From a virus: a stretch of DNA of 64,000 nucleotides. The position numbers were made by a program, and so were the translations under genes. Positions 2,820 through 56,159 of the stretch are shown here, piece after piece (the stretch's first letter is position 1; each line of letters starts with the position of its first letter). The DNA is taken from positions 1-64,000 of IMG/VR virus record IMGVR_UViG_3300036832_001138. One strand, written 5' to 3'. The notes under the pieces were generated by a model. The model had not been told where the DNA came from, searched no databases, and saw only the letters and a program-made list of their open reading frames with translations.

Positions 2820-2914
2820 GCGCCCGGCAGTCACCGTTTGGAGTTCACATCATTCCTGGCCGGGCGCGGCGGTCGCACGAACGCGATGGAGTTCAGAAGA
2901 ATAATGGCGACCGC
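2820..2914 (-). ncRNA. Orphan TIGR-like mini-array (2 guide units)
   Basis: gcgcccgg-ca-gtcaccgtt-tggagttca-catcattcc-tgg-ccgggcgc-g-gcggtcg-ca-cgaacgcga-tggagttca-gaagaataa-tgg-cgaccgc; same architecture as the 53.7-56.1 kb arrays. Confidence 0.9.
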
Positions 2915-2942: not shown

Positions 2943-4103
2943 ATGGCGAGAACACCCACACGAGTACCCGCATTTCCGACAACGCCGCCGGGCGCGGGCG
3001 TGCCGACGCGCGTACCGGGGCCGTCGCTTCCTCCCGTGGGTACGCGCTCGCCCACGCGCGTGCCCGCTGCGCCGCAGACCGCGCCGGGCAACGGCTTTCC
3101 CAATGCGGTGCGTATTCCGCAAACGTCGCCGGTCGGCCCGACCTACCCGGTGCACAGCCCGCCCGCGCCTACCGTCGGCTCGCGCTTCCCGGCGAATTCT
3201 CCGCCTCTGCCCATCGTGCCCGCGCGCTATCCCAACAGCGCGCGGCTGACGGCGGAGGCGGTGATCAGGGGGGCGAGCTTTCCCAATCGAAGCAGTCCGG
3301 GCATGGCGTTGCCGACGCCAACCGGGCAATTCCCCGATCACCCGACGGCGCAACTCCCGGCCCCGCCCGCGCAATTCCCCGACCGATTCGATCCGGGTAT
3401 GACGCTGCCGACGCCAGTCTCGCACTTCCGTCACTACAACAAGCCGGGTGAGCCGGGCTCGGGCGGGTTTGATCCCGCACCTGCGCCAAATCGGCGCTTC
3501 CCGACGCGGCATATCGATCCGCTCACGCGCATCCCGCGGTGGCGGCAACGGCTGCGTATCGCCTCATTCAAGGGGATTGAATTCTACGTCGAGCAACAAG
3601 GGCGCACGTCCGGCACGCGTACCGTCTTGCATCAATATCCGAAGCGCTCTGTGCCCTATGCCGAATCCATGGGACGCGAGGCGTTGCACTACGCGGTCAC
3701 CGGCTATCTGATCCAATCGCCGAACTGGCCGACGGGCGCGTCGTATTACGAGATGCTCTCGGATTATTCCGATCAGCGCGACAGCCTCGAAGCGGCGTTG
3801 ATGGACCCGGTGCCGGGCGAATTGCGTGATCCGCACACGCCGTATCTCGGCGTTGGTTACGCGCCGCTTCTGTTCATGTGTGAGAAGTACACGATCGTCG
3901 AGCAACGCGAGAAGGGCGGTTTTTGCTCGATCGAAATGAGCTTCGTCGAGGCTGGCGTCGCTGGCATGTCGATCCAAATGCAAGACACCGCTGGCGTCGT
4001 CGCCAACGCCGCGAACAACGCGAGCACTGCCGTAGCCGCGCAGGCTAATGCGCAACTCGGTGCCGTCAATCAACCCGGCGCTGCGCTCGCGTTTGAAGAA
4101 TAG
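2943..4103 (+). CDS. DNA circulation protein (Mu gpN-like) N-terminal domain with a Pro-rich extension
   Basis: 'WRQRLRIASFKGIEFYVEQQGRTSGTRTVLHQYPKRSVPYAESMGR' resembles DNA_circ_N; 'CSIEMSFVEAG' follows. Confidence 0.8.
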   Translation: MARTPTRVPAFPTTPPGAGVPTRVPGPSLPPVGTRSPTRVPAAPQTAPGNGFPNAVRIPQTSPVGPTYPVHSPPAPTVGSRFPANSPPLPIVPARYPNSARLTAEAVIRGASFPNRSSPGMALPTPTGQFPDHPTAQLPAPPAQFPDRFDPGMTLPTPVSHFRHYNKPGEPGSGGFDPAPAPNRRFPTRHIDPLTRIPRWRQRLRIASFKGIEFYVEQQGRTSGTRTVLHQYPKRSVPYAESMGREALHYAVTGYLIQSPNWPTGASYYEMLSDYSDQRDSLEAALMDPVPGELRDPHTPYLGVGYAPLLFMCEKYTIVEQREKGGFCSIEMSFVEAGVAGMSIQMQDTAGVVANAANNASTAVAAQANAQLGAVNQPGAALAFEE

Positions 4104-9205: not shown

Positions 9206-10309
9206 ATGCCGTGGGTCACGCCAACGTTGCAGCAATGCCGCGAGATCGTGCGCGACGATATCACCGCGTCTTTGCAGGGCGCGGCCGTGGTCGGCAACAC
9301 GGTGCTGCGCGTTATGTCCGATGCGATGGCGGGGATCGGCGCGCTCGTGCTGCGATACGAGGATTGGCAGGCGCGGCAATTGATGGTCGACCAAGCCGAG
9401 AAGGAATGGCTCGATCGGCACGGGAACATATGGCTCGTGAACGCCGACGGCACGACCGGCCGCAAGGGCGCGACCACGGCATCCGGTACGGTAACCTTCA
9501 CGGGCGTTGCAGGCGTGACCGTTGCCGCGGGCACCGAGCTTGTGTCACCTGACGGGCAGGCGTTTTACGATACGCTGGAATTCATCACGCTCGGCACGGC
9601 ACCGGTCGAGGTTGCCGTTCGCGCGACGACCGCCGGGGCGGCGGGCAACATACCCGCGGGCACCGCGCTGGCGCTGACCGTTCCGGAATCCGGCGTCGAT
9701 AGTGCGGTCATCGTCGTCGATCTGCGCGGCGGTGAGGAAGTCGAGAGCGATGACGAACTCCGCGCGCGCGTGCTCGCGCGTATCCGCCAGCCACCGATGG
9801 GCGGCTGCGCTTACGATTACGAGCATTGGGCGATGAGCATTCCGAGCGTGACGCGTGCATGGTGCGCGCCGCGCGAGATGGGAATGGGCACCGTGACGGT
9901 GCGATTCATGTGCGACGCGTTGCGGCCGGAAACCAGCGGCATCCCGACGCAAGACGATATCAATATCGTGCGCAACTATCTCGACACGGTGCGCCCGGTC
10001 GCGGTGCGAGATTTCTTCGTTGAAGCGCCCGTGCCCGAGCCGATCAATTTCAATCTCGCGCTCAAACAGGATTCTCTCGCGCTGCGCGGGCAAGTGCAAG
10101 CGTCAGTCGCGGCGATGATCAGCGAGAAGGCCGCGCCCGCGCACCAAGTCGACGGCGAGCTTGTGGCGGGCACGACGATTCTCGCATCGTGGGTTGCGGA
10201 GGCGATCAACCGCTGCACGAATGATTTCACGCTCGATATGCAAGATCATCCCATGCCGCACAACGGGGCAATCGGGGTACTCGGTGCGATCAGCTATCCG
10301 ATTCCGTAG
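9206..10309 (+). CDS. Baseplate J / Mu gp47-like protein
   Basis: 'WLDRHG...RKGATTASG', 'GGEEVESDDELRARVLARIRQPPMGGCAYDYEHWA', 'GMGTVTV'. Confidence 0.9.
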   Translation: MPWVTPTLQQCREIVRDDITASLQGAAVVGNTVLRVMSDAMAGIGALVLRYEDWQARQLMVDQAEKEWLDRHGNIWLVNADGTTGRKGATTASGTVTFTGVAGVTVAAGTELVSPDGQAFYDTLEFITLGTAPVEVAVRATTAGAAGNIPAGTALALTVPESGVDSAVIVVDLRGGEEVESDDELRARVLARIRQPPMGGCAYDYEHWAMSIPSVTRAWCAPREMGMGTVTVRFMCDALRPETSGIPTQDDINIVRNYLDTVRPVAVRDFFVEAPVPEPINFNLALKQDSLALRGQVQASVAAMISEKAAPAHQVDGELVAGTTILASWVAEAINRCTNDFTLDMQDHPMPHNGAIGVLGAISYPIP

Positions 10310-10319
10310 AGAGAAGGGC

Positions 10320-10369
10320 GAGCCCCGGCAGTCACGCTCTGGAGTTCATGAATTCGATGGCCGGGGCTC
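10320..10369 (-). ncRNA. Orphan TIGR-like guide unit
   Basis: gagccccgg-ca-gtcacgctc-tggagttca-tgaattcga-tgg-ccggggctc, intergenic between baseplate J and the gp48-like gene. Confidence 0.88.
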
Positions 10370-10420
10370 TAAGTCGCTTGGGAGCGACCTGACGACAAGT
10401 TTAGAAAAGATGGAGAGAGA

Positions 10421-11452
10421 ATGCCACCGCCTCCTGGCCCGCCGGTCGAAGATCGCCACGTCCGCCGCGGGCAGGAAGAATATTCGCACGCCATAAGCGC
10501 GTTGCTGCCGCAAGGCATCGCGTGGCCGCGCTGGCCTGACAGCGTTTTGATGCAAACGGTCTATGGCCTCGCGGGCATCATGGGTTATGCCGACGGCCGG
10601 ATCGCCGATCTGCTTGAGCGCGAAAGCGATCCGCGCATCACAACCGAAATGCTCGATTGGTGGGAGCGGGCGTGGGGCTTGCCTGATCCCTGTTACACCG
10701 GTCCGTCGACCATCGGCGAGCGGCAAAAAGCGCTGATGATGCGCATGACGTTAATGGGCGGGCAGTCGCGAGAATTCTTTATCGCGATGGCCGCCTACAT
10801 CGGCTACACGATCGCGATCAGCGAGTACAATCCCTTCATTGTTGGCATCGCGCCGCGCTACCAAGGGCACTATTATCAGGGCAATTATGACGTTGTTGCC
10901 AACTCGCCCGATCTCAGGGCGATCACGCCGAGCAAGGATCAGTTTTGGAGCGCGGTGACGCCGGATGCCGGATACAACACGCCGCCCGGTTACACCAATG
11001 CGCCGACGCCATCCGCATTGACGGTTGCGCTGCCGCCGCTGACTGCCGGAGCGGCAATCTCTTTCGGCGATCGCTTGTGGTTCGACGGCACCAATTGGAA
11101 AATTGCCCCGGTCGGGCAAAGGTTCTATTCCGACATCGCGGGTTTTGACGAATCGCTGCGCTCGCGCTGCGGAGATAACCGCGATTACAAGGCCGACGGT
11201 TCGCTCGGCGAATGGCCCGCACAGATCGGTCATCCGGCGATGCGGTTTGCTTGGACCGTGCACGTCTACCGCGCGCGGCTGACGTGGTTTCGCGCGAGCA
11301 AGGGCCAAGCCGGTGTCGATCCGCATTTGCGCATCGGCAAGGCCGAGGACCTTGAGTGCATCATCCGCCGATGGCGGCCCGGTCATACCGAGGTGCTGTT
11401 CGATTACAGCGGCACCGCTGCGCCGGGCGATCCCATGGCTGGTACGCCGTGA
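10421..11452 (+). CDS. YmfQ/DUF2313 (Mu gp48-like) baseplate protein with an internal insertion
   Basis: 'ALLPQGIAWPR', 'ESDPRITTEMLDWWERAWGLPDPC', 'LECIIRRWRPGHTEVLFDY'. Confidence 0.85.
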   Translation: MPPPPGPPVEDRHVRRGQEEYSHAISALLPQGIAWPRWPDSVLMQTVYGLAGIMGYADGRIADLLERESDPRITTEMLDWWERAWGLPDPCYTGPSTIGERQKALMMRMTLMGGQSREFFIAMAAYIGYTIAISEYNPFIVGIAPRYQGHYYQGNYDVVANSPDLRAITPSKDQFWSAVTPDAGYNTPPGYTNAPTPSALTVALPPLTAGAAISFGDRLWFDGTNWKIAPVGQRFYSDIAGFDESLRSRCGDNRDYKADGSLGEWPAQIGHPAMRFAWTVHVYRARLTWFRASKGQAGVDPHLRIGKAEDLECIIRRWRPGHTEVLFDYSGTAAPGDPMAGTP

Positions 11453-11512
11453 TCCTCCCGCGCCGTTGAGACGGCGCGCATCAACCAAAGCGTTCAAAGA
11501 GGGAAATGCGCG

Positions 11513-12847
11513 ATGAAATATTCGCAGCCGTTCGGCACGCCCGATCCACCGCTCGGAACCTACCCGAGATTCGTTAACGGGAATCCCGTGACGGGCACCG
11601 AGGGCTCGATCCCTCCGGCGACCGCGTTCGACGAAGACCAAATCGAGATCATCACCGTTATCCAAAACGCTGGTCTAACGCCGGATCACGGCGACCTGAC
11701 TCAGCTATGGCAAGCGTTGATGGCGCTGTTTGCGCAGAAGTACATCACCACGCCAATCACCAAGACGATACACGGCGCGGGCGCGGATTTTCCTGATTTG
11801 ATTGCGGCGTTTAATTGGGTCGCGCAATACATCATCACGCCGACGGGTAGCGTCACGTTTCTTTGCGCGTCGGGGACATGGAATTACACGCAAACCGTCG
11901 AGGTTAATCACCCGAACGCCGATCGCATTGTCGTCACTGGCCCTGCGCTTACCGGAGCTTCGCCAGCGCAGAATCAACTCTCTGTCACGTGGCCGATCAC
12001 CGGCACGTCGCGGCAGACCGACGGCACCAATCAGCACAATCAGTTGAAGGGCATTTACGCGTGCGAGCTTAGCTTTCTTGGCGGCGTGAGCGGGTTTCGC
12101 GTCTACCGCGGCGGCGTGACCATTCGCTATCTCTTGATCAGCGGGACGCAAACGGTCGCGCAACCGCACGCGGGCGATCCCGGCGGCTGCGGCATCTGTG
12201 CATTTGCCACCGTGGTGCTCGACGGCACGGCGGTATGGGGCTTCGGCAATCATGGTTATTACAGTCAAGGCGGCGCATTTTTATCCTACACATCGCTTTC
12301 GATCATTGCGTCGTTTTGCAATTCATGTGGCTTTTGGACCTTCGGCGGGTTGATCTCGTTTCTGTCCAATCAAAACGTTATCAGCACCTCACACGGCTCT
12401 TGCGCGTTTGCCTGTTTCGGCACCGAGGTCTATTCCGGTATTGTCGATGCGCGCGGGATCGCGACACCGAAAACCGTTGCGGGCGGCGGTGCGTCTAACG
12501 TTGGCGCGGTCACGGTCGAGCAGGGCACGCAATTCATGATGGGGGCGGGAAGCCTTGTGCGCTACTGCAACAACCAGGGCTGCACCGTCGCCGACTGCTC
12601 GACGCTGCAACTCAGCGGCAGCACGGTGATGGATTGCAGCGTTTGGCAGATTTGGATGAACAACGGCGTATGTTGGGCGGAGGGCTCAAATATTCAGCAA
12701 ACCGCGGGCACGGTCTATCCCAACGGCGGCGTTGCGGTTCTGCAAAACGGTGCACAGCTTTCGTTGCTCGGTGCTGTTGTCGGCGGCAGCGTCTTCCCGA
12801 CGCCCAACACGTACAACATGGCGAACAATTCTTTCGTGCGCATGTAA
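11513..12847 (+). CDS. Tail fibre/tailspike protein (probable beta-helix)
   Basis: N-terminal 'EIITVIQNAGLTPDHGDLTQLWQAL' is a Mu-type fibre attachment motif; beta-helix-like C-terminal region. Confidence 0.75.
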   Translation: MKYSQPFGTPDPPLGTYPRFVNGNPVTGTEGSIPPATAFDEDQIEIITVIQNAGLTPDHGDLTQLWQALMALFAQKYITTPITKTIHGAGADFPDLIAAFNWVAQYIITPTGSVTFLCASGTWNYTQTVEVNHPNADRIVVTGPALTGASPAQNQLSVTWPITGTSRQTDGTNQHNQLKGIYACELSFLGGVSGFRVYRGGVTIRYLLISGTQTVAQPHAGDPGGCGICAFATVVLDGTAVWGFGNHGYYSQGGAFLSYTSLSIIASFCNSCGFWTFGGLISFLSNQNVISTSHGSCAFACFGTEVYSGIVDARGIATPKTVAGGGASNVGAVTVEQGTQFMMGAGSLVRYCNNQGCTVADCSTLQLSGSTVMDCSVWQIWMNNGVCWAEGSNIQQTAGTVYPNGGVAVLQNGAQLSLLGAVVGGSVFPTPNTYNMANNSFVRM

Positions 12848-12856
12848 GGAGGCACT

Positions 12857-13087
12857 ATGACCGATGTTGGTGTTGGCAGCGGCTATAAGTTTCCTCTCAC
12901 GCCCTTGACGTGCAACTACTGCGGCGCGGTTTGGGATCGAGTCAATCCGGTGGTTCACACCGGAACGGCGAATCAATTCTCCGGCCACACCGATGCCGAA
13001 TGGGAGCAGTGGCGGATCGATCAGGGCATTCCTGACGGCCAACCTTACGCGCGCTGGACGCCGGTCGCGCCCCCGCCCGGACCATGA
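12857..13087 (+). CDS. Hypothetical protein
   Basis: Strong SD taaggagg; coupled to the next gene. Confidence 0.55.
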   Translation: MTDVGVGSGYKFPLTPLTCNYCGAVWDRVNPVVHTGTANQFSGHTDAEWEQWRIDQGIPDGQPYARWTPVAPPPGP

Positions 13088-13977
13088 CGCTTCGTCCGCG
13101 CATCCCGCTCGATCTCGGCATTCGGCGACCGCCGATCGTCAGTCCATTCTTTACCTATCCCTATCAAAATCCGGTGTATCCGCCGGACATGCCGATTCCG
13201 GAGATGGAGCAAATCGCGCGCGACGCGGCAATGGCGCGCGCGCAGTCGCCGGGCGAGCGCGTTTGTTTGATCGATGAGGCGACGGCGCTCGAAAACCCGA
13301 CACATACGCACCCTTACGATGAGTGCATGAATTATCGGCACGATCACGTCGTGGCGGATAGCGATCCCTGGACCTACTGGCAACTGCTCGATCAGGTTGT
13401 CTCGAAGTTTATGGCGATCCCGCCGCCGCCGCCGCCGCCGCCGGTTGGCTGGAATTCTCGCGCCCGCGTCAACGAAAGCGGCATTTCGATCATGGATGGG
13501 ACAAGCCCCGGCTGGCAGGGCTTCACGTGGGCGACCATGATCGGCGCGTCGCGGATTAAGCTCGGGCCCGGCAACCAAAGCCGCGTCACGATCCAAGGGC
13601 TTGCGCTGATCGGTCCGGTCTACCTTTGCCCGATCGCCGCACCGGCAAAACCGTTCATGGCGAACATCATTTATCCGCTAACCTTCAATGGCGGGCAGGG
13701 TTTAGTCGTGCCGCAACCGCCTGATTATGTGGCAACATCTGATCCGCTGCCGCACGGACTCGACCTTCCTAACGGTGTCATGATTTATTCGTATGTTCCG
13801 GACGTAGCTCCGGGGCAACCGACCGGGTATATCGGCCACCGCAACACCGAACAGGATTGGTACTCGCGATGGGCGTATGGCAATTGGTCCGGGCATTATG
13901 ATCTGTTCACGCCGACGGCGTGGGTTGCTGCCCCCTTTGGCTCGATTGGGGTGTTAGAGTTCGACGCGAACTACTGA
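13084..13977 (+). CDS. Hypothetical virion-associated protein
   Basis: ATGA-coupled 297-aa ORF with a poly-Pro linker. Confidence 0.55.
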   Translation: MTLRPRIPLDLGIRRPPIVSPFFTYPYQNPVYPPDMPIPEMEQIARDAAMARAQSPGERVCLIDEATALENPTHTHPYDECMNYRHDHVVADSDPWTYWQLLDQVVSKFMAIPPPPPPPPVGWNSRARVNESGISIMDGTSPGWQGFTWATMIGASRIKLGPGNQSRVTIQGLALIGPVYLCPIAAPAKPFMANIIYPLTFNGGQGLVVPQPPDYVATSDPLPHGLDLPNGVMIYSYVPDVAPGQPTGYIGHRNTEQDWYSRWAYGNWSGHYDLFTPTAWVAAPFGSIGVLEFDANY

Positions 13978-14010
13978 GTCGAATCACAGTGGAAAAACGT
14001 AAAGGACCAA

Positions 14011-14040
14011 TTGCCAAACGCGGACAATTGGCCCTAGCTT
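14011..14040 (+). promoter_or_regulatory. Sigma70-like promoter containing an operator-like site
   Basis: TTGCCA-N18-TAGCTT; the spacer holds GGACAATTGGCCC, a variant of GGGCCANTGGCCC. Confidence 0.55.
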
Positions 14041-14075
14041 GATTGCTCTCACCTCAAACAGAAGGAGTCGTCATT

Positions 14076-14708
14076 ATGGTCGGAAGACTCGCCTACATCG
14101 TGTTTCTGGATTCCGGTGGTCCGGTCGATCCGGGCTTCGGCGTTCCCGGTTGGCCCGCGCATCCTATCGCACCGGGCGGGCCGCCTCCCGGCATCTGGCC
14201 CGGTCCCGGCTACCCGGCACATCCGATCGCGCCCGGTGGTTCTCCGCCCGGCATTTGGGGCGGTGCGCCAGCATGGCCCGCGCACCCGATCGCGCCCGGT
14301 GGTCGGCCTCCGGGTTTTTGGGGCGGGTCACCCGCATGGCCGAGCCATCCCATCGCGCCCGGTGGTTCGCCTCCGGGTATTTGGGGCGGCGTTCCGCCGA
14401 ACTACATCGACATCGGGTTACCGGGCCAGCCGCCCGGCATTTGGGGCGGTGGCAATCAACCGTTCCCGACGCCGCCGATCTACATTCCGATCCCGCCCGG
14501 CGAGCAGCCGCCCGAAGGCGGCAATGGGCTCTTGCCTAGTCATCCGATTGTGATTCCACCGTCGGAAGGCGTTCCCGAAGATAGCCAAAAATACTTGGTT
14601 CACGTTTACGTCGCGGGGGTTGGTGGAGTGTGGTTCTTGATCCAACCGCCGCCCATGCCGACGCATCCGTGGGTGCCGCCCGCTCCACCGGCAGGGCCGA
14701 AGGCGTAA
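14076..14708 (+). CDS. Pro/Gly-rich repeat protein (PAHPIAPGGxPPGIWGG repeats)
   Basis: SD gaaggagtc at 14061; four to five ~19-aa tandem repeats. Confidence 0.7.
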   Translation: MVGRLAYIVFLDSGGPVDPGFGVPGWPAHPIAPGGPPPGIWPGPGYPAHPIAPGGSPPGIWGGAPAWPAHPIAPGGRPPGFWGGSPAWPSHPIAPGGSPPGIWGGVPPNYIDIGLPGQPPGIWGGGNQPFPTPPIYIPIPPGEQPPEGGNGLLPSHPIVIPPSEGVPEDSQKYLVHVYVAGVGGVWFLIQPPPMPTHPWVPPAPPAGPKA

Positions 14709-14828
14709 CGCGTGACATCTTTCGGTGACGGGCAACCCCCATCACCGTGAGCCCTCGACGTTAAGAGCGTCCGAACGTTCTGGAGAGCGCCCGAACGTTT
14801 CTGGCGTCGAGGGCAACCACGATGAGCG

Positions 14829-14862
14829 AAAAAGCGGCCCCGACGCTTAGAGCGCCGGGGCC
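14829..14862 (-). terminator. Intrinsic terminator directly after the orphan guide unit
   Basis: Minus strand ggccccggcgc-tctaa-gcgtcggggcc-gc-ttttt. Confidence 0.6.
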
Positions 14863-14863
14863 T

Positions 14864-14915
14864 GTGATCCGGGCATCAGGTTATTGGAGTTCATAGGTCG
14901 CGTGGCCGGGATCAC
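14864..14915 (-). ncRNA. Orphan TIGR-like guide unit
   Basis: gtgatccggg-ca-tcaggttat-tggagttca-taggtcgcg-tgg-ccgggatcac; new stem sequence but the same boxes and 9-nt spacers. Confidence 0.85.
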
Positions 14916-14970
14916 GCGATCAAGTCTTACAGGGACTTTGCCTAAAGGGTAGAGGCAGAATGAAATGGCG

Positions 14971-15001
14971 GCGGGCTGCTTCGGCGGCCCGCTTTGTTTT
15001 T
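14971..15001 (+). terminator. Intrinsic terminator just upstream of the endolysin
   Basis: gcgggctgc-ttcg-gcggcccgc-tttgttttt. Confidence 0.6.
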
Positions 15002-15012
15002 GGGAGCACGCC

Positions 15013-16821
15013 ATGCGCAACAATCCGATCGCGATCTCGTCGGGCCACGGCAAGTTTATTCGCGGTGCGAGCGGATATCTCGACGAAGTTGACGAAGCGC
15101 GTCGCGTCGTTGCGCGCGTTGCTGACATGCTCACCGAACGCGGCGTCACCGTGCGCGGCCCGTTCAATGACGATACGAGCACAACGCAAAACGAAAATCT
15201 CAATCGCATCGTTGACTGGCATAATTCGCAAGAGCGCGTGCTCGACGTGTCGGTGCATTTCAACGCGAATGAAACCACGTCGTCGCCGATGGGCACCGAA
15301 GTGCTCTACGTCACGCAACAGATGCTCGCGGCCGAAGTCTCGACGGCGATCGCGGATGCGGGCGATTTCAAGGATCGCGGACCAAAAAAACGGACCGATC
15401 TCTACGTGCTCAATAACACCGACATGCCTTGTATCCTGCTCGAAGTGTGCTTCGTTGATAGCTCGGCGGACGCCGAACTATACGAAGACAACTTCGATGC
15501 GATTTGCGACGCGATCGCACAATCGATCTGCGATGTGACGGGCGAAGACGCCGGGCCGCAGCCGCCGGATCGTCCGGATCGCCCGGAGCGGCCGCCGCAA
15601 CCGGAAGTGCCAACCGAGCGCCCCGAGCTAAGCAAGGGCGATGAGGGCCCGTGGGTCGAGAGCGTACAGCGAACACTCGGCCTGCCGCTCGACGGCGACT
15701 TCGGCAATACGACACAAGCGGGCGTGCAAGGCTATCAGCGCGCGGTCGGGCTTTCCGCCGATGGCAAGGTCGGCGACACGACATGGAAATATCTCGATGA
15801 GCTTGATCGCCGTATGGCGACCGGCGACGCCGGGATCAGCGATGAACTCGCGGCATCAATCGATGAGTTGGTCGCGGACTCGGGCATCATAGAATATTTG
15901 TGGCCCGATCGCGGGCAAGCGCCGATGGGTTATTACAACGGCATTGCCAAGACCTACGCGTTAGCGATCAAGCGCTATGCCAACGGCGACGGCGCGACCG
16001 CGATCATGGCGCAAGCCGAAACCGGCAGTGCCAGCCATGATGCGCTGACGTGGTATCACGATGAATTCGAAGCGCGCGGGATGCGCAACGATGCGAATAG
16101 CGTCGACACGCTGCGCCATCTGTTCGTGATGCTCACCGGGCTCGGGGTGCGCGAAAGCACCGGCAACCATTGGACCGGGCGCGACATGACCGCCGACAAT
16201 GTGGAATCCGACACGTGCGAAGCTGGCGCGTGGCAATCGAGTTGGAATCTCAGCAATTGCTCGTCGGAAATCAGCAAGCTATTCGATGAGTTCAAGATCG
16301 ATCCGAACGCGTTCCGCCCGAGCTACAGCGAAGGCGTGGTGCCCTATCCGGATGATCTCGACAACTACGGCGGCGGCGACGGTGCGACGTATCAATTCCT
16401 CGCGAAATATTCCCCGGCGTTTGCTGCATTGATGACCGGTGTCGGCATGCGGTTGCTCGGCGGCAGCGAGGGGCATTGGGGGCCGATTCGCCGCCGAGAG
16501 GTGACGATCGAGCCGCGCATCGATGAACTTCTCACCGAAGTCGATTTGCTGGTCGAGAATGAGGACATCGAGCCGCCGGGCCCCCGTCCTGATCCGCGGC
16601 CGCCGCAACCCGAGCCCGGCGCGGCTTACGTCGCCGTCAATGTCTCGGCGTTGGGTCGCGTGATCGTCAATATCGAGGAACCAACTAACGAACCATCGGA
16701 CGAAGTGCCGGAGGTGACGATCAGCGTGCGCAGTAAAGGTGCGGTCGCAGTGAGCGTGAACCACGGCACGCCCGACGAGATCGCCGATGCGTTGCGCGTT
16801 GGTAAGGTGAGACACGTGTGA
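15013..16821 (+). CDS. Modular endolysin: Amidase_3 + peptidoglycan-binding domain + uncharacterised C-terminal domain
   Basis: 'IAISSGHG...E...VSVHFNA...GTEVLY...DRGPK...LYVLNNTDMPCILLEVCFVDS'; PG-binding 'LSKGDEG...DGDFG...YQRAVGLSADGKVGDTTW'. Confidence 0.9.
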   Translation: MRNNPIAISSGHGKFIRGASGYLDEVDEARRVVARVADMLTERGVTVRGPFNDDTSTTQNENLNRIVDWHNSQERVLDVSVHFNANETTSSPMGTEVLYVTQQMLAAEVSTAIADAGDFKDRGPKKRTDLYVLNNTDMPCILLEVCFVDSSADAELYEDNFDAICDAIAQSICDVTGEDAGPQPPDRPDRPERPPQPEVPTERPELSKGDEGPWVESVQRTLGLPLDGDFGNTTQAGVQGYQRAVGLSADGKVGDTTWKYLDELDRRMATGDAGISDELAASIDELVADSGIIEYLWPDRGQAPMGYYNGIAKTYALAIKRYANGDGATAIMAQAETGSASHDALTWYHDEFEARGMRNDANSVDTLRHLFVMLTGLGVRESTGNHWTGRDMTADNVESDTCEAGAWQSSWNLSNCSSEISKLFDEFKIDPNAFRPSYSEGVVPYPDDLDNYGGGDGATYQFLAKYSPAFAALMTGVGMRLLGGSEGHWGPIRRREVTIEPRIDELLTEVDLLVENEDIEPPGPRPDPRPPQPEPGAAYVAVNVSALGRVIVNIEEPTNEPSDEVPEVTISVRSKGAVAVSVNHGTPDEIADALRVGKVRHV

Positions 16822-17186
16822 TGCACATCGTAACTCCCAATGAGCTAACGTTGCCGCAGCGAGTCGCGTTAACCCTTGTCATTGTATTCGTCATTCTATT
16901 CGCGTTCACGGCGTTCGGTTACTTTCAAGGAACGCGCGACGCCGAAGGAAAAGAAATAGACCTGTATCAAGGAATTCCGTTGGATGAAAAGTTGTTGCAG
17001 TTGGACAGGCGCGCGCTCGACGAAGCCTACCATGCGCATCTGATAAAGCTCTGGAACGTGTGGCTTACCGATGGCGCGCGCGAGGCGCAACGCATCACCA
17101 ACGGATTGCGCATTGCGCGCGAATCTTATGCGGTGGCAGCGGCGCAAATCGCCAAGCGCGAACAGCAACAGGAGCAGCGCAAATGA
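16818..17186 (+). CDS. Membrane-anchored protein (lysis region)
   Basis: One N-terminal TM segment; overlaps the endolysin stop. Confidence 0.55.
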   Translation: MMHIVTPNELTLPQRVALTLVIVFVILFAFTAFGYFQGTRDAEGKEIDLYQGIPLDEKLLQLDRRALDEAYHAHLIKLWNVWLTDGAREAQRITNGLRIARESYAVAAAQIAKREQQQEQRK

Positions 17187-17335
17187 ACACGATCCTAATC
17201 ATCATTCTCGTGCTGTTGCTGATCGGCGCTTTCCCGTCGTGGCCGTATTCGCGCGGATGGGGCCCCTATCCCGCGGGCGGCATCGGGCTCGTGCTGGTCA
17301 TCTTATTGATCCTGATCTTGTTGGGGCACGTCTGA
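17183..17335 (+). CDS. DUF3309 family small membrane protein
   Basis: MNTILIIILVLLLIGAFPSWPYSRGWGPYPAGGIGLVLVILLILILLG is the DUF3309 pattern. Confidence 0.8.
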   Translation: MNTILIIILVLLLIGAFPSWPYSRGWGPYPAGGIGLVLVILLILILLGHV

Positions 17336-17338
17336 AAC

Positions 17339-17497
17339 ATGGCGCAGAAACGAAGGCGCATGACCGAGCGCGAAGCGCGCTTCGAAACCCGGTTTATCTA
17401 CGTGCTTTTGGTCGGGTTCGTGATCGCGATCTCCGCGGTGCTCTATTTCTATTTCACCGGGGCGATCAGCAATGGAGCGGGCAATGCGGTTCAATGA
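17339..17497 (+). CDS. Small single-TM protein (holin candidate)
   Basis: 52-aa ORF read by hand: MAQKRRRMTEREARFETRFIYVLLVGFVIAISAVLYFYFTG... Confidence 0.5.
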   Translation: MAQKRRRMTEREARFETRFIYVLLVGFVIAISAVLYFYFTGAISNGAGNAVQ

Positions 17498-17672
17498 TCT
17501 TAGGCGCGAAACGCAAGTGGCGATCGTGATCTTTTTGGTGGTGGTCGCCGGGTTGCTTGCGATCGCGCTTTACGGTTGGCTCACGGGCGCGTGGGAGTTC
17601 CCGGTCGATTGGCGTGAGACTTCGGAATTGTCACGATCGGCCACGCTGCTTATCAACAATATTGGCCAGTAA
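17472..17672 (+). CDS. Small single-TM protein
   Basis: Hydrophobic segment VAIVIFLVVVAGLLAIALYGWL. Confidence 0.45.
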   Translation: MERAMRFNDLRRETQVAIVIFLVVVAGLLAIALYGWLTGAWEFPVDWRETSELSRSATLLINNIGQ

Positions 17673-18376
17673 TTCGAACGGTATCGTCACACAATGATCC
17701 CAGGCGTATTTCTGACCGAAATCGAGGATCAGATTGCCATCTTTATCGGTGCTGGGAAGGGCGGCCTTGGGCCATTTGATCATGCCTGCGATTGGTTGCG
17801 CTTGCGGTGTTGCGTGAGTCCACATGAGCTTTTCCTCCGATTTGTTTGATTGATCTTCGGTGGCGGCCCGCGAAAGCGCGGTAGGGAATCCAACCCCTGC
17901 CGCGCTTTTCATTTTTGCGCCTGCTTTTGCAACTCCCGCAACGTTTCAATCGCGGGCCAGAATTGATCGCGGCACGGGCAAGCGCTCGGTTTGCCGTGGG
18001 CGCAACTTCCGCAGCATTCGTCGGTCAAAGCCGTCAATGCCGCTTCGGCCGCGCGGTACAAATCCATCATTTTTGCGTGCTCGTTTCGTTGATGATCCGC
18101 GCGCGCAATTCATCGTCGGTTTCGAGGCGGAAACCTTCGACAACCCCAATCAAGAGATCGCACGGCTGTGCTTCGCCCGGTTTAAGCGGGATCAATCGCC
18201 GAGTGAAATGCGGACCGCTCAACTCTGCTAAGATGTCTTCGATGTCTTTCATTTTGTGTGCCCGCGTCGATTGCCTTGACCCTCACACATGAACCATGCC
18301 GGGGGCGGCGGGGAGGCAATCTTTCGGCCCCGACGCGCGGGCTCGCCGAGTAGGAACTTCCGCCCCCGAGCGCATC

Positions 18377-18676
18377 CTAGCTCACACGCCGAAGCCGCGC
18401 ACGCAAACTATCGTGGTGCACCACACCGTCGGGCCGCCAATCCTCGATCCGCTCGATCCCCTGTAGCTTCTCGAATGCCTGATTGCGCAGACGTAGCTCG
18501 CGCGCGGCTTGCGTCTTCTCTCGCACGGCCTGATCCTTCGCCGTCGCTTCCGCCATGCACCGATTGATCTTGTACGCGCGATATTTGCCGATCGCGACGC
18601 ACAGCATCATGATTGCGAAGATGATAAGCCACACGACCATCATCGCGGCAGCGTGGAATTCCTGATCGCCGTTCAT
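18377..18676 (-). CDS. Hypothetical membrane protein
   Basis: SD ggag; N-terminal TM segment. Confidence 0.5.
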   Translation of the reverse strand: MNGDQEFHAAAMMVVWLIIFAIMMLCVAIGKYRAYKINRCMAEATAKDQAVREKTQAARELRLRNQAFEKLQGIERIEDWRPDGVVHHDSLRARLRRVS

Positions 18677-40882: not shown

Positions 40883-41461
40883 TCATTCAGTCTGCCATCC
40901 GCTCGGTCGTGTTGGATCGTCATGGGGGCGTGGCGGCTCGTGCCGTCCTTTATCCTTAGCAAGAGCGAGAAGTTCGCTCACATCTTGCACACGCATCACC
41001 TTCTCAATTATCTTGTTAAGGTCGACGCGCAGCGAGCGTATTTCATGCTCAATTTGGTCGAGTCGGGAAGGGGCCTCGCGCGTTCGCTCCCCGCTATCCA
41101 CACGTCTTTCCAGCGCTAAAATTCGCCGAGCGAGCACAGCGGGATGCAATTCCATCGCTTCGAGCACGCGCATGCGCTCGCGCATGTTCTCTATCGACCC
41201 TTCGGCCCGGTTCAAGGCGTCGAGCGCAGCCGATATCTGCAACGCCAAATGCTCGGCTCGCGGGACGATGCTCTTGTGGACGAAATTTTCCAAGCGGCGA
41301 TGCTGCTCGTCGAGCACTTCGGCCGCGGCGCGGTCGCCCCATCGCTGCCAATTCGGCAGATCAACCGGGACAAGCCGCGTACCCTGCGCTCGCAAGGTGC
41401 GTGGCGGCGTGAAGCCGGTAATCTTGCGCTTGATCTTCCGTTTTCGCTTTTTCATTTGCAT
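40883..41461 (-). CDS. Basic N-terminus coiled-coil protein (near-target of two guides)
   Basis: SD aggagtc; 192 aa. Confidence 0.6.
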   Translation of the reverse strand: MQMKKRKRKIKRKITGFTPPRTLRAQGTRLVPVDLPNWQRWGDRAAAEVLDEQHRRLENFVHKSIVPRAEHLALQISAALDALNRAEGSIENMRERMRVLEAMELHPAVLARRILALERRVDSGERTREAPSRLDQIEHEIRSLRVDLNKIIEKVMRVQDVSELLALAKDKGRHEPPRPHDDPTRPSGWQTE

Positions 41462-50703: not shown

Positions 50704-52848
50704 GTGATGCTGGAGATCGAGCCCATAGCTCGCGCATTGCTCGGCGAGCCCAACGCGAAGCTATCTTCGCAATTCGAATGGCGATATGGCAACCGCGGCT
50801 CGCTTTCAATCGATCTGCGCAAGAATGTTTGGCACGACCACGAAACCGACGAGAGCGGCGGATGCCTCGATCTGATCACTCACAAGACCGGACTCGACGG
50901 CCCGGAGCGTGCGCAATGGATGCACGATCGCGGCATCGGCAATGGATACGATCAAACGACCAAGCGCCCGGAGATCGTGGCGACGTTTCCCTATAATGAC
51001 GAATACGGCAAGGAGCTTTTTCAGGTTGTCAAATTCGAGCCGAAGGATTTCCGCCAGCGGCGGCAAGACAAGACCGCGCCCGGCGGCTATCGCTGGTCGG
51101 TCAAGGGCGTGCGGCGAATTCCCTATCGCCTCGACGATTTGTCAGAAAAAATCGAAGGGCGCATTTTCATCGCCGAAGGCGAAAAAGACGTTGATACGCT
51201 TTGGCGGCACAACATTCCAGCGACGTGCAATGCCGGGGGCGCAGGCAAGTGGCATCCCGAACTCACCGAATTTTTCCGCAACAAGACCGACAACGTAGTT
51301 GTACTGCCCGATCGTGATCCGCCGAAGAAAGACCCAAAGACCGGCGCGGAAATGAAGCACGAGGATGGGCGGTTCATTCGGCCGGGGCAAGACCACGCAC
51401 AAGAGATCGCGGCAGAGATGCATCGCATTGGCGTACCCGTGCGCGTGGTCGAGCTTTGGCGCGATTGGCCGGAGATGCCCGAGAAGGGTGACGTAACCGA
51501 TTGGTTCGATCATGGCGGCACGGCCGACCGGCTACAGAAAATTGTTCAAGACGCCCCATTTTGGAAACCGGGCGATCAAGCTGACGACGGCGCGCTGCTC
51601 AAGCTCCAATCCGTGTTTCCGATCAACGAGCGCGCACTCCCAACGCGCAATTGGATCATGCCAGGACTTTTAATGCGGCGTCAGGTAACCGTGTTGGTAG
51701 CACCAAGTGGTGTGGGCAAAAGTTTGCTCACGCTGCAATTAGGTATCGCCTGTGCACAAGGCCGAAAATGGAGCGGTTGGACTCCGCGCCGTACATTCAA
51801 CGTGCTGTTTATCAACTCGGAAGATGACTATTTCGAAATCTGCCGCAGGCTCGCCGCGGCCACGCAAAGGATGCGACTCGGCGCACATAACGAATTCGAA
51901 ATTGATCAGCTAGGAATCGCCGATCGCTTCCATATCGCCGATGCCGAGCAGAGCGGTACTGTTGTTGCCAAGTTTGACGCACGAACCAAAACGCTCGTGA
52001 GCACACCGTTGCACGATCAACTGATCGAAACAATAAAAGCCAACCAAATCGATGTGGTCTTCGTCGATCCGTTTGCCGAGACTTTCGAGGGCGACGAAAA
52101 TTCCAATAGCGAATTGAAGTGGGCGGGCGCGTTATGGCGCAAGGTTGCGCGGCAAACCGATGCTGCGGTTTGTCTCGTGCATCATACAAAAAAATATGCA
52201 AGCGGGCTGCAAGGTGACGTTGATGCGGCGCGCGGTGCTGGTGCGCTGATCGGAATCGCGCGCATTGTCTCGACGCTATTTCCGATGACGCCGAAGGAAG
52301 CGGAAGCGATGGGCGTCAAGCTCGGAGATAGGTCGCTCTATTTGCGATACGATGATGCGAAAGCAAATCTGAATTTGGTTTCTCCGTTTGCGCGCTGGTT
52401 TCAAAAGACCACGATCACGCTCGACAATGCATGCGGCGATCCTAACAGCGACGACTTTGTGCCCGGCGACGAAGTGGGCGTGCTCAATCCATGGAAGCCT
52501 GAAACGAAAGACGTGCACGAAGCTCAGATCATCGGATTTTTCAAGGCGATCGATCGCGGCATGGTCGACGATGCTGATCAACCGACCGGCGAATTCTGGA
52601 CCTTCAAAAAGGGCAAGAGCGGCGCGAGATACGTCGGCTACCTCGCGCAAAGCTTTTTCAAATGCGATGCGCTCTCGCAAGCCGAAGCGCTGATCCGCAA
52701 GTGGGAAGGCACAAGATTGAAAACGATTCAATTCAAGGCGCGGAACGGTCACCTTCGTGATCGCGTCGTGAGCGAGCTTTCCCCCGACTTCCCGCGCCCC
52801 GAGGCCGCGCCGATCGAGCCGATGGCACAGCTTTTTCCTGCCGAATAG
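50704..52848 (+). CDS. Primase-helicase (TOPRIM + AAA_25/RepA-like helicase)
   Basis: TOPRIM 'IFIAEGEKD...LPDRD', 'KGDVTDW'; Walker A APSGVGKS; 'VFVDP', 'LVHHTKK', 'ARGAGAL'. Confidence 0.9.
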   Translation: MMLEIEPIARALLGEPNAKLSSQFEWRYGNRGSLSIDLRKNVWHDHETDESGGCLDLITHKTGLDGPERAQWMHDRGIGNGYDQTTKRPEIVATFPYNDEYGKELFQVVKFEPKDFRQRRQDKTAPGGYRWSVKGVRRIPYRLDDLSEKIEGRIFIAEGEKDVDTLWRHNIPATCNAGGAGKWHPELTEFFRNKTDNVVVLPDRDPPKKDPKTGAEMKHEDGRFIRPGQDHAQEIAAEMHRIGVPVRVVELWRDWPEMPEKGDVTDWFDHGGTADRLQKIVQDAPFWKPGDQADDGALLKLQSVFPINERALPTRNWIMPGLLMRRQVTVLVAPSGVGKSLLTLQLGIACAQGRKWSGWTPRRTFNVLFINSEDDYFEICRRLAAATQRMRLGAHNEFEIDQLGIADRFHIADAEQSGTVVAKFDARTKTLVSTPLHDQLIETIKANQIDVVFVDPFAETFEGDENSNSELKWAGALWRKVARQTDAAVCLVHHTKKYASGLQGDVDAARGAGALIGIARIVSTLFPMTPKEAEAMGVKLGDRSLYLRYDDAKANLNLVSPFARWFQKTTITLDNACGDPNSDDFVPGDEVGVLNPWKPETKDVHEAQIIGFFKAIDRGMVDDADQPTGEFWTFKKGKSGARYVGYLAQSFFKCDALSQAEALIRKWEGTRLKTIQFKARNGHLRDRVVSELSPDFPRPEAAPIEPMAQLFPAE

Positions 52849-53647
52849 GTTCGTCAACGGCGACGCGACGCCATTCGCTCAGCAAATCTTTGAGAAATTG
52901 TTTCATCGTGATGCGCAGCGCATCTTTGCGCCGATGGCCGTCGGTCCAATCCGGGTGCGCTTTCTTGGTGTAGGCGCGGCGCTTAGCATAGATTTCGCCA
53001 TAGTGGCCCTTTGGCTTGCCTTCGCCGCCGGTTTTCTTTGCGCCAATCCACTGCGCGTTCACGAGCCACGTCGCGATCTGTGCCATCAGCGCATAGCGCT
53101 CCCCGGAAAAAGGATTTTCGATCCATTCGTCGGCGCTCAGCGCGCGCGGTCGCCACGTCGTGCGTTTCCACGTTGATCCGGCGTGGCCGTCGTATGGTGC
53201 GAAGCCGAGCCGCTTCCATAACTTGCTCGGCTTGGAATAATTCGAGAGATCGCCAGCTTCGGCGACGATGGTCGCGAGCCCGAGCGCGCCTGCGCCGTGA
53301 ATCTTTTCGATCCATGGATAAACCGGTAGCTCGCACGCGGCAGCCTCCATTCGCTTTTCCGTGGCAGCACGCCGTTCATCAGCGGGCGCACGCGCAGGAT
53401 CGCATACCTGCAACACTTCTTCCGCCAGCGGATGCGCTTCGCCCTCGCGAATGCGCTTGATAATTTCGCGCACCTCGCGGTTCGATTTCTCGCGCTCGGC
53501 ATCGCTGGCGTTAGGATTCCATTTGGTGCCATTGATACGAATGAAGCTTTCGAGCGAGCGGTCAAGTTTCTGTTGCACTTTCATTGCGAACCGTCGCTTT
53601 CGATGCAGGCCGCGGATCAATTCGATGGTTTCGGATTGTTGGGTCAT
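52733..53647 (-). CDS. TIGR-associated Nop-domain protein without a nuclease domain (TasA-like)
   Basis: 'IHGAGALGLATIVAEAGDLSNYSKPSKLWKRLGFAP' and 'GHYGEIY..RR...HRRKDALRITMKQFLKDL' resemble the IS110/Nop RNA-binding region; starts at the coiled coil with no DEDD-RuvC or HNH; directly downstream of the array. Confidence 0.8.
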   Translation of the reverse strand: MTQQSETIELIRGLHRKRRFAMKVQQKLDRSLESFIRINGTKWNPNASDAEREKSNREVREIIKRIREGEAHPLAEEVLQVCDPARAPADERRAATEKRMEAAACELPVYPWIEKIHGAGALGLATIVAEAGDLSNYSKPSKLWKRLGFAPYDGHAGSTWKRTTWRPRALSADEWIENPFSGERYALMAQIATWLVNAQWIGAKKTGGEGKPKGHYGEIYAKRRAYTKKAHPDWTDGHRRKDALRITMKQFLKDLLSEWRRVAVDEPIRQEKAVPSARSARPRGAGSRGKARSRRDHEGDRSAP

Positions 53648-53676: not shown

Positions 53677-54214
53677 GCGAGCCCGGCAACCGGTCAATGG
53701 AGTTCACGATCGCCTTGGCCGGGCTCGCGGCGGTCGCAAGCGGCGTGTGGAGTTCACAGACGTGATGGCGACCGCATTGGTGGATTAGGGTGCGAGCCCG
53801 GCACTCGCGATATGGAGTTCAAGTGCTGGTAGGCCGGGCTCGCGGCGGTCGCAACGCAACGTTGGAGTTCACATGATCTTTGGCGACCGCATTCGAGAAT
53901 AGAGCGCCCGGCATGCCGTTTGTGGAGTTCAATCACGTGCTGGCCGGGCGCGGCGGTCGCACGGAGGCGCTGGAGTTCACGATCTACATGGCGACCGCAT
54001 CGGTGGATTGGGTGCGAGCCCGGCATTGGCCGACAGGAGTTCAACCCTTTCCTGGCCGGGCTCGCTACGGTCGCATTGCGCGCGTGGAGTTCACTCAGAT
54101 CGTGGCGACCGCAAAAGGTGCGCCCGGCAGCGTTGTCATGGAGCACACAAGTGTTTTGGCCGGGCGCGGCGGTCGCAACCGCTCCGTGGAGTTCACTACT
54201 GTTTTGGCGACCGC
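53677..54214 (-). ncRNA. TIGR-like stem-loop guide array, proximal (10 units)
   Basis: Minus strand unit: stem-CCA-N9-TGAACTCCA-N9-TG-stem'; stems alternate between GCGGTCG and GCG(A)GCCCGG; all spacer pairs differ. Confidence 0.9.
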
Positions 54215-54226: not shown

Positions 54227-54898
54227 TCATGACCGTGCATCGCCCTCGATTTCTGACGGCTTGCGCGCGGCGGCGATCAGATCGCTTGCGACCTTCGCCG
54301 AGCCGTCGCGGATCACTTCGACGGCTTTGATCCTAGCGTCGTTATAGTATTGCACGGCAATCTTGAGCGGTATCACCTTCTCGACTTCGCCGTGCGGATC
54401 GGCGGCGACGCAATAGTCATTCAACCGCCGGATTGCGATCGCGTCGACTGCATCATCATAACCGCGCTGTAGGAAATCTCCGGCCGTGTTTGCCAGATTT
54501 TCCGCGATGGCGCGCAATTCGTGTACGCGCAGCTTCCCAAGCGGACCATAACCACGGATTTTGCGGTTGAATATCTCGGCGGCGACGGCTTGCCCGGCGG
54601 CGATCGCTCCCGCCTTTTGCGCGTCGGTGGGTGTGCGGAGCAGACTGCTCCGGCGATGCTTGCCCTCGCGGCGGCGCGCGGCGGGCTTCGGGTGCGCGAT
54701 CCGCGGTAGCTTCGTTTCGCTCGACGGCGACGACAAGCGCGACAGGTAATCAGCAACGAGCGCGATAAGCAGCGGCCGCTTCGCATTGTCCATCAACGCG
54801 CGTGCCAGCGTCGGTGCGGCTTTGTTCACACTATTGTTGCTGGCGCGCAGCGCTTCGATCGCGGCGTCGCGGAGCTTATCGAGATCAGAGGCGGCCAT
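54227..54898 (-). CDS. Hypothetical helical protein embedded between the two arrays
   Basis: 223-aa ORF with SD gaagga; it fills the gap between the arrays exactly. Confidence 0.7.
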   Translation of the reverse strand: MAASDLDKLRDAAIEALRASNNSVNKAAPTLARALMDNAKRPLLIALVADYLSRLSSPSSETKLPRIAHPKPAARRREGKHRRSSLLRTPTDAQKAGAIAAGQAVAAEIFNRKIRGYGPLGKLRVHELRAIAENLANTAGDFLQRGYDDAVDAIAIRRLNDYCVAADPHGEVEKVIPLKIAVQYYNDARIKAVEVIRDGSAKVASDLIAAARKPSEIEGDARS

Positions 54899-54929: not shown

Positions 54930-56121
54930 GCGAGCCCGGCAAGTGGTGACTGGAGTCCACGTCGGATCAGGCCGGGCTCGCGGCGGTCGCAGAATTGTTT
55001 TGGAGTTCACCAAGGCACTGGCGACCGCATTCGAGATAAGAGCGCCCGGCAGGCTACATTTGGAGTTCATAGGGCCAATGGCCGGGCGCGGCGGTCGCAG
55101 CGCAAGATTGGAGTTCACGTGATCTTTGGCGACCGCATTCGAGGGAAAGAGTGCGCCCGGCAGAGCTTCACAGGAGTTCACGCCGAATTTGGCCGGGCGC
55201 GGCGGTCGCATCTCGTCGTTGGAGTTCAATCGTGTGCTGGCGACCGCATTTCGAATAGGTGCGCCCGGCAGAAGCCGGTTGGAGTTCAGGCCAGCATTGG
55301 CCGGGCGCGGCGGTCGCACGACACCAATGGAGTGCAAGGGAGAACAGGCGACCGCATTCGAGATGGGTGCGCCCGGCAGGTCATCGTTGGAGTTCACGTG
55401 CTTGATGGCCGGGCGCGGCGGTCGCAATCTCTGGATGGAGTTCATACAAATGCTGGCGACCGCATTCGGGTGAAAGAGAGCGCCCGGCATTTCCATTTTG
55501 GAGTTCAACTGATCGCTGGCCGGGCGCGGCGGTCGCATTCCAAACCTGGAGTTCATCAGCTTACTGGCGACCGCAGTCGGTTTGATAGGTGCGCCCGGCA
55601 AGGCGATGTTGGAGTTCATATTGCCGGTGGCCGGGCGCGGCGGTCGCAGATAGGTGCAGGAGTTCACACCCGAATTGGCGACCGCGTTGGTGATAGGTGC
55701 GCCCGGCAATGATTGCTTGGAGTTCATCATGAAGGTGGCCGGGCGCGGCGGTCGCAGCGTGGCGTTGGAGTTCACGGGATCAGTGGCGACCGCGTTCGTT
55801 GTGATAGGTGCGCCCGGCAGACAGCGATCGGAGTGCACGTTCACCAGGGCCGGGCGCGGCGGTCGCAGTGGCAGTATGGAGTTCATTCGGCACCTGGCGA
55901 CCGCATTCGAGAATAGAGCGCCCGGCACGCCTCCCTTGGAGATCAATGCCGAAATGGCCGGGCGCGGCGGTCGCATCCTCGATCTGGAGTGCATCAGTGG
56001 CATGGCGACCGCGTTCGTGAAAAGGTGCGCCCGGCAGACGAGTTCTGGAGTTCACGACTACGATGGCCGGGCGCGGCGGTCGCACCTTGAACTTGGAGTT
56101 CAACCACGTCGTGGCGACCGC
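54930..56121 (-). ncRNA. TIGR-like stem-loop guide array, distal (22 units)
   Basis: Eleven two-hairpin modules (~105-115 bp period); same CCA/TG boxes, 9-nt spacers and 9-nt loop repeat. Confidence 0.92.
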
Positions 56122-56129: not shown

Positions 56130-56159
56130 CATATACGGGCCATCGGCCTAACGTGTCAA
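56130..56159 (-). promoter_or_regulatory. Sigma70 promoter driving the array-tas operon, with operator variant
   Basis: TTGACA-N18-TATATG; the predicted start site falls at the first stem; the spacer holds AGGCCGATGGCCC. Confidence 0.8.

Follow-up and report, generated by a model that had tools for sequence, protein, structure and literature searches.

A stem-loop TIGR-TasA locus in a soil phage: proposed target geometry of its guides and a near-match ahead of a late gene

The closest described systems are the stem-loop TIGR-TasA loci (PlTasA from a Peromyscus leucopus gut contig, MbTasA and BlTasA). They encode a nuclease-less Tas protein with a coiled coil and a Nop-like domain and, as far as the published text goes, carry arrays on both sides of the locus together with scattered units, features that are all found again in the locus described here (PMC12045711; 10.64898/2026.08.11.744272; 10.64898/2026.09.09.750476). 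The structure of PlTasA is reported in that text with nine base pairs per spacer and a continuous unwound region. The dual-repeat systems TaTasR (PDB entry 9MTY) and SpTasH read both DNA strands with tandem spacers, in the same strand order as proposed below for the present clade. TasR and TasH carry RuvC or HNH nucleases and cut DNA, whereas the TasA studied here has neither, and their arrays are built from edge and loop repeats, whereas those of the soil phage are built from hairpins. Contiguous footprints of 9 + 9 bp are given in the published text for TaTasR and PlTasA, and of 8 bp per spacer for SpTasH; from the published 3′ overhangs of TasR it follows, by our own derivation, that one DNA strand reads spacer A and then the reverse complement of spacer B. 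According to the same sources, the TasR seed is made up of the DNA positions that face bases 4 and 3 of the spacer, mismatches at the edges are tolerated best, and cleavage by SpTasH is abolished by adjacent double mismatches. Transcriptional repression by TasA proteins, including MbTasA, has been shown in reporter assays (10.64898/2026.09.09.750476, a 2026 preprint). The natural targets of TIGR-Tas systems are described as unknown in the text of both primary papers because the guides are short.

Two further groups of systems bear a more general likeness. In dCas9 CRISPRi, type IV and type V-M (Cas12m) systems, RNA-guided non-cutting binding likewise blocks transcription and is used in mobile-element conflicts, a likeness to non-cutting CRISPR that is drawn in the text of Faure et al. 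themselves. The CRISPR systems differ in having unrelated proteins and an unrelated guide architecture, and TIGR-TasA has no PAM, its guides being much shorter, made of two parts and directed at both strands. Box C/D sRNPs (Nop5/Nop56-58) and the IS110/IS621 bridge-RNA recombinases share the Nop-like RNA-binding fold and two-segment guides. They methylate RNA or recombine DNA, whereas the present locus has no methyltransferase partner or recombinase domain.

The TIGR-TasA locus of the soil phage

The window analysed here is a stretch of 64,000 nucleotides, the first 64 kb of a 73,077-bp soil-virus record. Plus-strand genes for baseplate, tail-fibre and lysis proteins occupy the window up to ∼17.8 kb (the late block), and the remainder of the genome is almost entirely minus-strand. 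The coordinates of the features discussed are collected in Table 1.

The product of tasA was modelled with AlphaFold from 32 sequences (mean pLDDT 85.9). The model is all-helical, with essentially no β structure, and consists of a long coiled coil (helices within residues 2–104) followed by a helical domain (residues 110–265). In a Foldseek comparison with the PDB, the top ten ranks are all TasR or TasH chains with a probability of 1.00, and IS621 recombinase chains come next. Sequence identity to the solved Tas chains is merely 15–17%, and a sequence search of the PDB retrieved the TasR chain 9mty_A with an E value of 0.015. The sole Pfam hit is Transposase_20, which is weak and lies below the cut-off; neither RuvC nor HNH was detected in the protein by Pfam at E values of up to 10. 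Relatives are numerous in metagenomes (at least 391 at E ≤ 0.001). On account of the fold matches and the lack of a nuclease domain, the protein is a TasA, in agreement with an earlier sequence-only reading of this DNA, which had taken the Tas to be nuclease-less.

A pattern scan of the whole 73-kb record located 37 stem-loop tigRNA units, every one of them on the minus strand: 22 in sub-array 1, 10 in sub-array 2, two at 67401–67480, one at 10329–10360 and two at 2828–2907. The two sub-arrays flank a conserved gene for a 223-residue protein and lie upstream of tasA, and the five isolated units are found elsewhere in the genome. Each unit contains the pattern CC[A/T/C]-N9-TG twice, with 4 nt between the intervals and stems of 7–9 pairs; on the minus strand, the units of sub-array 1 read stem-CCA-9 nt-TGAACTCCA-9 nt-TG-stem. 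All 37 conform to the TIGRFinder rules, which call for two 14-nt intervals (box C CCA, a 9-nt spacer and box D TG) at most 15 bp apart and for a palindromic stem of at least 5 bp around both intervals. No Rfam family was matched by the units. The unit at 55042–55089, to which the sequence-only reading had drawn attention, reads stem-CCA-TTGGCCCTA-TGAACTCCA-AATGTAGCC-TG-stem on the minus strand, with TTGGCCCTA as spacer A and AATGTAGCC as spacer B (guide 55050–55081).

The array strand is the tas strand in 27 of 28 IMG/VR loci, and across 72 metagenome loci the tas strand carries 547 units and the opposite strand 4; in the window, too, the array stands next to tasA and on the same strand. A possible array promoter (Table 1) ends a few bases ahead of the first array stem. 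The stems of the isolated units in the late block would form strong hairpins in late mRNA as well.

Unlike the known stem-loop TasA loci, the present one has the conserved 223-residue gene beside tasA and an alternation of paired units with two stem types. A homologue of the 223-residue protein is encoded near tasA and on the same strand in eight of ten related virus records (within ∼0.6 kb by coordinates). Searches with the protein gave no Pfam family at the cut-off and no significant sequence match in the PDB, and its model (pLDDT 72.5) gave no PDB fold match. The protein could be a partner of TasA in this clade that has so far gone unrecognised.

Judged by sequence, by the model and by analogy, the soil phage thus appears to carry a real RNA-guided, nuclease-free DNA-binding system, binding itself being predicted from other TasA proteins. 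Following what is seen with other Tas proteins, each unit would be released as a box C/D-like hairpin RNA that loads a TasA dimer, spacers A and B would pair with opposite DNA strands, and RNA polymerase would be blocked at the bound, unwound site.

Table 1. Coordinates of the features discussed (positions in the window unless stated otherwise)
Feature	Position	Strand	Remarks
TIGR sub-array 1	54940..56114	-	22 stem-loop units = 11 pairs, two stems alternating
TIGR sub-array 2	53687..54207	-	10 units
tigRNA unit of the sequence-only reading	55042..55089	-	Box C CCA, box D TG, 8-bp stem
Isolated tigRNA unit	10329..10360	-	In a late-block intergenic gap, antisense to late genes; best own-genome site 9576-9592
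Two isolated tigRNA units	2828..2907	-	In another late-block intergenic gap, likewise antisense to late genes; unit 2876-2907 has best own-genome site 4087-4103
Two isolated tigRNA units	67401-67480 of record	-	Beyond the window
Possible array promoter	56131..56159	-	TTGACA-N17-GTATAT, read by eye; absent from the scan's list
Terminator-like hairpin of upstream gene	56182-56203	-	Possible array promoter lies just after
tasA	52733..53647	-	304 aa; directly after sub-array 2; coiled coil and Nop-like helical domain (predicted)
Gene for 223-aa helical protein	54227..54898	-	Between both sub-arrays
Intergenic gap, 98 bp	13978..14075	+	Separates two plus-strand late genes; contains site 14028-14044
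13-pair hairpin	14003..14035		'Operator' of the sequence-only reading; 3′ arm covers first 8 bases of site 14028-14044
Near-cognate site of guide 55050-55081	14028..14044	+	Reads TTGGCCCTAGCTTGATT; 15/17
Downstream gene	14076..14708	+	210-aa Pro/Gly-rich repeat protein without family match
Endolysin gene	14965-16821	+	After the 14076-14708 gene
Best own-genome near-match	41421..41437	-	16/17 to guide 55098-55129
ORF	40883-41461		Near-match 41421-41437 lies 24 nt inside
Near-match	9576..9592	+	16/17 to isolated guide 10329-10360
Baseplate wedge gene	9206-10309		Contains near-match 9576-9592
Near-match	4087..4103	-	15/17 to guide 2876-2907
Baseplate hub gene	2943-4103		Contains near-match 4087-4103 at its end
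Near-match	10606..10622	+	Guide 54074-54105; 2 mismatches/16, junction matched by B9
Baseplate gene	10421-11452		Contains near-match 10606-10622

Proposed target geometry and tasA genes as candidate targets

Target geometry was analysed with 762 unique guides from 97 records (loci L001–L028 and L101–L180 and contigs G001–G015). Position 9 of spacer A (A9) is complementary to position 9 of spacer B (B9) in 359 of the 762 guides (47% versus 24% expected, p ∼4e-42), and the other 80 pairs of spacer A and B positions are complementary in 21–30%. With near-duplicates removed, A9 and B9 are complementary in 352 of 738 guides and form G-T or T-G in a further 161, and the complementarity exceeds 25% in 67 of the 70 records that have at least five guides. 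A9 and B9 thus covary strongly in this clade, whereas the text of Faure et al. finds no obvious covariation between spacers A and B.

Eight bases of each spacer were then compared with 97 tasA genes at every inner spacing between -2 and 8, with four orders of the spacers. In the true order, a 17-bp footprint yields 26 distinct guide-site pairs at one mismatch or fewer in 16; the remaining combinations of spacing and order yield 0–6 pairs each, the contiguous 9 + 9 form giving 5. Counted by distinct guides, there are 10 at the 17-bp spacing versus 0–6 in the others. The tasA matches are confined to the order in which the reverse complement of spacer B comes after spacer A, as tandem-spacer targeting predicts, and the junction base agrees with A9 or B9 in 38 of 38 tasA matches versus 41 of 77 matches elsewhere. 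An all-against-all scan of whole sequences fails to separate the 17-bp spacing because one wrong-geometry outlier reaches 83 pairs versus 88, and the signal comes from the tasA genes.

Because of the A9/B9 covariation and the spacing of the tasA matches, we infer that target sites of this clade are 17 bp long and that the central base pair is read by both 9-nt spacers. The sequence-only reading had put forward the same target form (spacer A joined to the reverse complement of spacer B, with one shared pair); the proposal was right, and it is not obvious from the literature. The footprint differs from that of PlTasA, and a contiguous 18-bp (9 + 9) target without spacer covariation was rejected for this clade on the same two counts (5 versus 26 tasA pairs and the covariation of A9 with B9).

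Guides of the clade match the tasA genes of phages other than their owner at a few conserved stretches, and 33 of the 38 matches are antisense. For all ten guides with a tasA site at one mismatch or fewer, the owner's tasA has 2–5 mismatches and never one or none. The absence of self matches in tasA proves little alone because only ∼0.4 would be expected (38 hits over 97 records). One guide of contig G006 matches the tasA genes of G007 and L008 at 17 of 17 positions; the tasA copy of G006 itself has six differences within these 17 bp, although the surrounding 308 bp are 88% identical. The tasA gene of the soil phage is in turn matched by a foreign guide (L104, from an unrelated metagenome contig) with one mismatch in 16 at about nucleotide 587 of the gene, a stretch that is also matched by several other foreign guides. 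Tested in this way, the only candidate natural targets to stand out statistically are the tasA genes of other phages in the clade. An earlier suggestion that the guides are directed against relatives is strengthened accordingly by the better match of clade guides to the tasA of other phages than to the owner's own copy. Among the main texts of the papers searched, none mentions tasA targets, a 17-bp geometry or covariation between spacers A and B.

A near-match in the leader of a late gene

In the sequence-only reading, the guide of unit 55042–55089 was aimed at a phage promoter at 14028–14044, where it would cover the junction of an operator half-site and a -10 box. The unit is real and the match of 15/17 is correct, but the match is not clearly above chance (see below). 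Spacer A matches at 9/9 positions, spacer B is mismatched at B4, B5 and B9, and the junction base follows A9. In the published contiguous 9 + 9 geometry the same site agrees at 13/18 positions, and this alignment was rejected as a match. The site lies 32 nt before the start codon at 14076.

The promoter itself gained no support. A consensus scan of positions 13500–14500 found no sigma-70-like site. By eye, TTGCCA-N18-TAGCTT can be picked out, a weak candidate with just 3/6 positions in the -10 hexamer, and a sigma-70-type promoter at 14011–14040, with -35 and -10 hexamers at a spacing of 16–18 nt, is not supported. The stretch taken for an operator is instead the 13-pair hairpin of Table 1, which has a folding energy of -21 kcal/mol (z -3.0) as minus-strand RNA and of -17 kcal/mol (z -2.0) as plus-strand RNA. 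A T-run follows it on the minus strand only (TTACGTTTTT); on the plus strand, which is that of the flanking genes, two pairs turn into A-C mismatches and the T-run is absent. The 38-nt 'operator' stretch has no second copy in the window, the one loosely similar stretch being a 28-mer (see below), and GACAATTGG has 11 matches at one mismatch or fewer versus 14.75 expected, so that it is not over-represented. The promoter label for 14028–14044 is therefore an unsupported, if still possible, reading, with no scan hit, a hairpin in its place, a single copy of the stretch and a core motif that is not enriched. We read the site as part of a hairpin-flanked leader of a late gene, not as a demonstrated promoter.

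The 28-nt stretches at 14004–14031 and 57140–57167 (plus strand) agree at 20 of 28 positions, both end in GACAATTGG and each stands ∼35–45 nt upstream of a plus-strand start codon; the second lies inside the divergent gap beside the TIGR locus. They could conceivably be sites for one DNA-binding protein. The product of the gene downstream of 14028–14044 contains repeats of the type HPIAPGG-PPGIW, and soil-metagenome contigs accumulate, with many joints, on this gene (14076–14708), which points to a repeat that is widespread in such samples.

None of the 37 guides has a perfect match in its own genome. With the junction rule there are five own-genome near-sites, of which those at 41421 and 9576 have one mismatch and those at 10606, 4087 and 14028 have two. 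In three near-sites the non-junction mismatches fall solely near the spacer edges (A8; A2; A1 with B8). Two sibling guides, 55098–55129 and 53852–53883, one from each sub-array, both resemble 41421–41437 (1 versus 3 mismatches in 16 non-junction positions); the second also mismatches the site at the junction, for spacer B. The siblings may track allelic variants of one target.

The leading explanation for the resemblance of guide 55050–55081 to 14028–14044 is coincidence, which we put at about a coin toss. The 37 guides have four sites at two mismatches or fewer in 17 over the 73 kb, versus 1.5 with re-paired spacers and 2, 3 and 2 with wrong orders, both of them conservative controls. With the junction rule, the five sites compare with ∼1.4–1.7 expected from controls that keep the real spacers, and without it seven are observed versus a mean of 3.7 for controls that keep the real 8-mers in other spacings or orders. 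Letter-shuffled guides give 0.65 sites on average and reached five in none of 300 shuffles, which speaks against coincidence; this null is too lenient because it destroys the natural make-up of the spacers. The counts divide by mismatch class. The exactly-two-mismatch class, to which 14028–14044 belongs, has three sites versus ∼1.7 expected genome-wide with the junction rule, and the three-mismatch class has no excess, whereas the one-mismatch class has two 16/17 sites versus control means of 0.02 and 0.00. Given these control counts, chance hardly accounts for the two 16/17 sites but could account for the 15/17 class alone. In related phages, self near-sites are not in clear excess, with 13 in 15 whole contigs at this spacing versus 2–16 (mean 7.3) at other spacings, nor does self-targeting stand out clearly across 23 related loci. 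The missing promoter and the mismatches at B4 and B5 also fit a chance resemblance.

Against coincidence stands the distribution of the near-sites. Of the five, four fall within the plus-strand late block (24% of the genome), a number reached there by none of 59 control spacings and geometries (mean 0.83), the late-versus-rest split having been picked after the data were seen. Within the late block, the junction rule gives three two-mismatch sites, whereas 47 controls average 0.36 and never exceed 2. For two isolated guides of the late block, the best sites in their own genome are just 0.75 and 1.2 kb away. This clustering hints at something real. Being intergenic and shortly before a start codon, the site would moreover be well placed for a roadblock, and an adjacent, central pair of mismatches is the expected look of an escape allele.

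Possible roles: alleles of relatives, self-regulation and the biology of the clade

The last point leads to a second explanation, which we regard as possible but tentative: guide 55050–55081 would be directed at related phages whose homologous late-gene leader contains the perfect 17-mer, and the soil phage would carry a diverged allele. TasA would then block transcription into the 14076 gene and the endolysin gene of relatives, and the phage's own copy would escape through an AC-to-TG change (14040–14041) at the centre of the spacer B half. The tasA genes offer a precedent, in the G006 guide with its six differences at home and in the 2–5 mismatches that owners' tasA genes show to all ten close-matching guides. 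The late-block clustering of this phage's near-sites and the central position of the mismatches point the same way. The genome-wide count of the exactly-two-mismatch class and the self near-sites of related phages, neither of them in clear excess, weigh against a diverged allele, as does the orientation of the site, which is sense, whereas the tasA matches are largely antisense.

The predicted allele was sought in IMG/VR with a pattern of spacer A, 0–3 free bases and then part of spacer B, which returned 25 stretches. The perfect 17-mer is present in none of the 25. In 19 of them one base separates the halves; these come from one and the same conserved gene in unrelated A+T-rich phages, and at the position where the contiguous 18-bp form calls for G they have T or C. 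The halves are two bases apart in another five and three bases apart in the last one. Close relatives of the late region were absent from the collections searched. A 297-residue neighbour protein of the late region has no relatives in IMG/VR or in five related records, and positions 13000–15000 gave no blastn match in the phage collection. For the baseplate protein, relatives from prokaryote genomes have just 27–36% identity, and the one 73% relative in IMG/VR comes without a nucleotide alignment and without tigRNA units. Soil contigs from four runs were compared over positions 1–20000, and among the 40 of 2590 differences that were listed none falls at 14028–14044. The sequencing runs listed as containing the sequence include no RNA run. 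The real target of guide 55050–55081 is most likely foreign phage DNA that is absent from the collections.

We consider improbable a third explanation, self-regulation, in which the complex of TasA and this guide tolerates the mismatches and occupies the late-gene leader of its own phage. The gene for the Pro/Gly-rich protein and the endolysin gene would be held back until late in infection. Such a role would suit the late-block clustering, the placement of tasA and the arrays in a minus-strand block opposite the late genes, the repression by TasA proteins in reporter assays cited above, and the three of five near-sites whose non-junction mismatches are near the spacer edges, where TasR is most tolerant according to the published text. 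At 14028–14044, however, the mismatches are adjacent and central. By analogy with the TasR seed and with the SpTasH rule, mismatches at B4 and B5 would fall in the seed and cut-adjacent region, and the site is therefore unlikely to be bound well by the phage's own TasA complex. The sequence-only reading had the nuclease-less Tas bound at this site and acting against relatives or self, and binding of the own site is the part that fares badly. Selection for self-regulation should also keep guides perfect, and none of the 37 is; nor did the scan find a promoter for such regulation to act on.

Lastly, the hairpin 14003–14035 might matter by itself, as a terminator, an RNA-stability element or a protein operator with the guide uninvolved; its 13-pair stem, minus-strand z score and T-run, the strong hairpins of isolated tigRNA units in other late-block gaps and the partial copy at 57140–57167 speak for this, but it is compatible with every other reading, leaves the guide match unexplained and gains nothing from the frequency of GACAATTGG, and as the explanation we hold it to be very unlikely.

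Taken together, the observations allow a joint reading that we offer as a tentative possibility. Targets of the clade would be 17 bp long and the guides would be weapons between related phages, many directed against the tasA of rivals and others against alleles of late genes; 14028–14044 would be a spared self allele ahead of the lysis genes, with the isolated late-block guides linked to the alleles that they spare. The claim of a guide on a promoter remains unproven. Repression as the mode of action of TasA, which the sequence-only reading had likened to CRISPRi, has since found experimental confirmation in the published text of 10.64898/2026.09.09.750476 and is no longer new. What is new is the proposed rule of 17-bp targeting with a shared pair in this clade, together with the tasA genes of rival phages as its first statistically supported candidate natural targets. 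Both would shape the prediction of targets and the programming of TasA tools.
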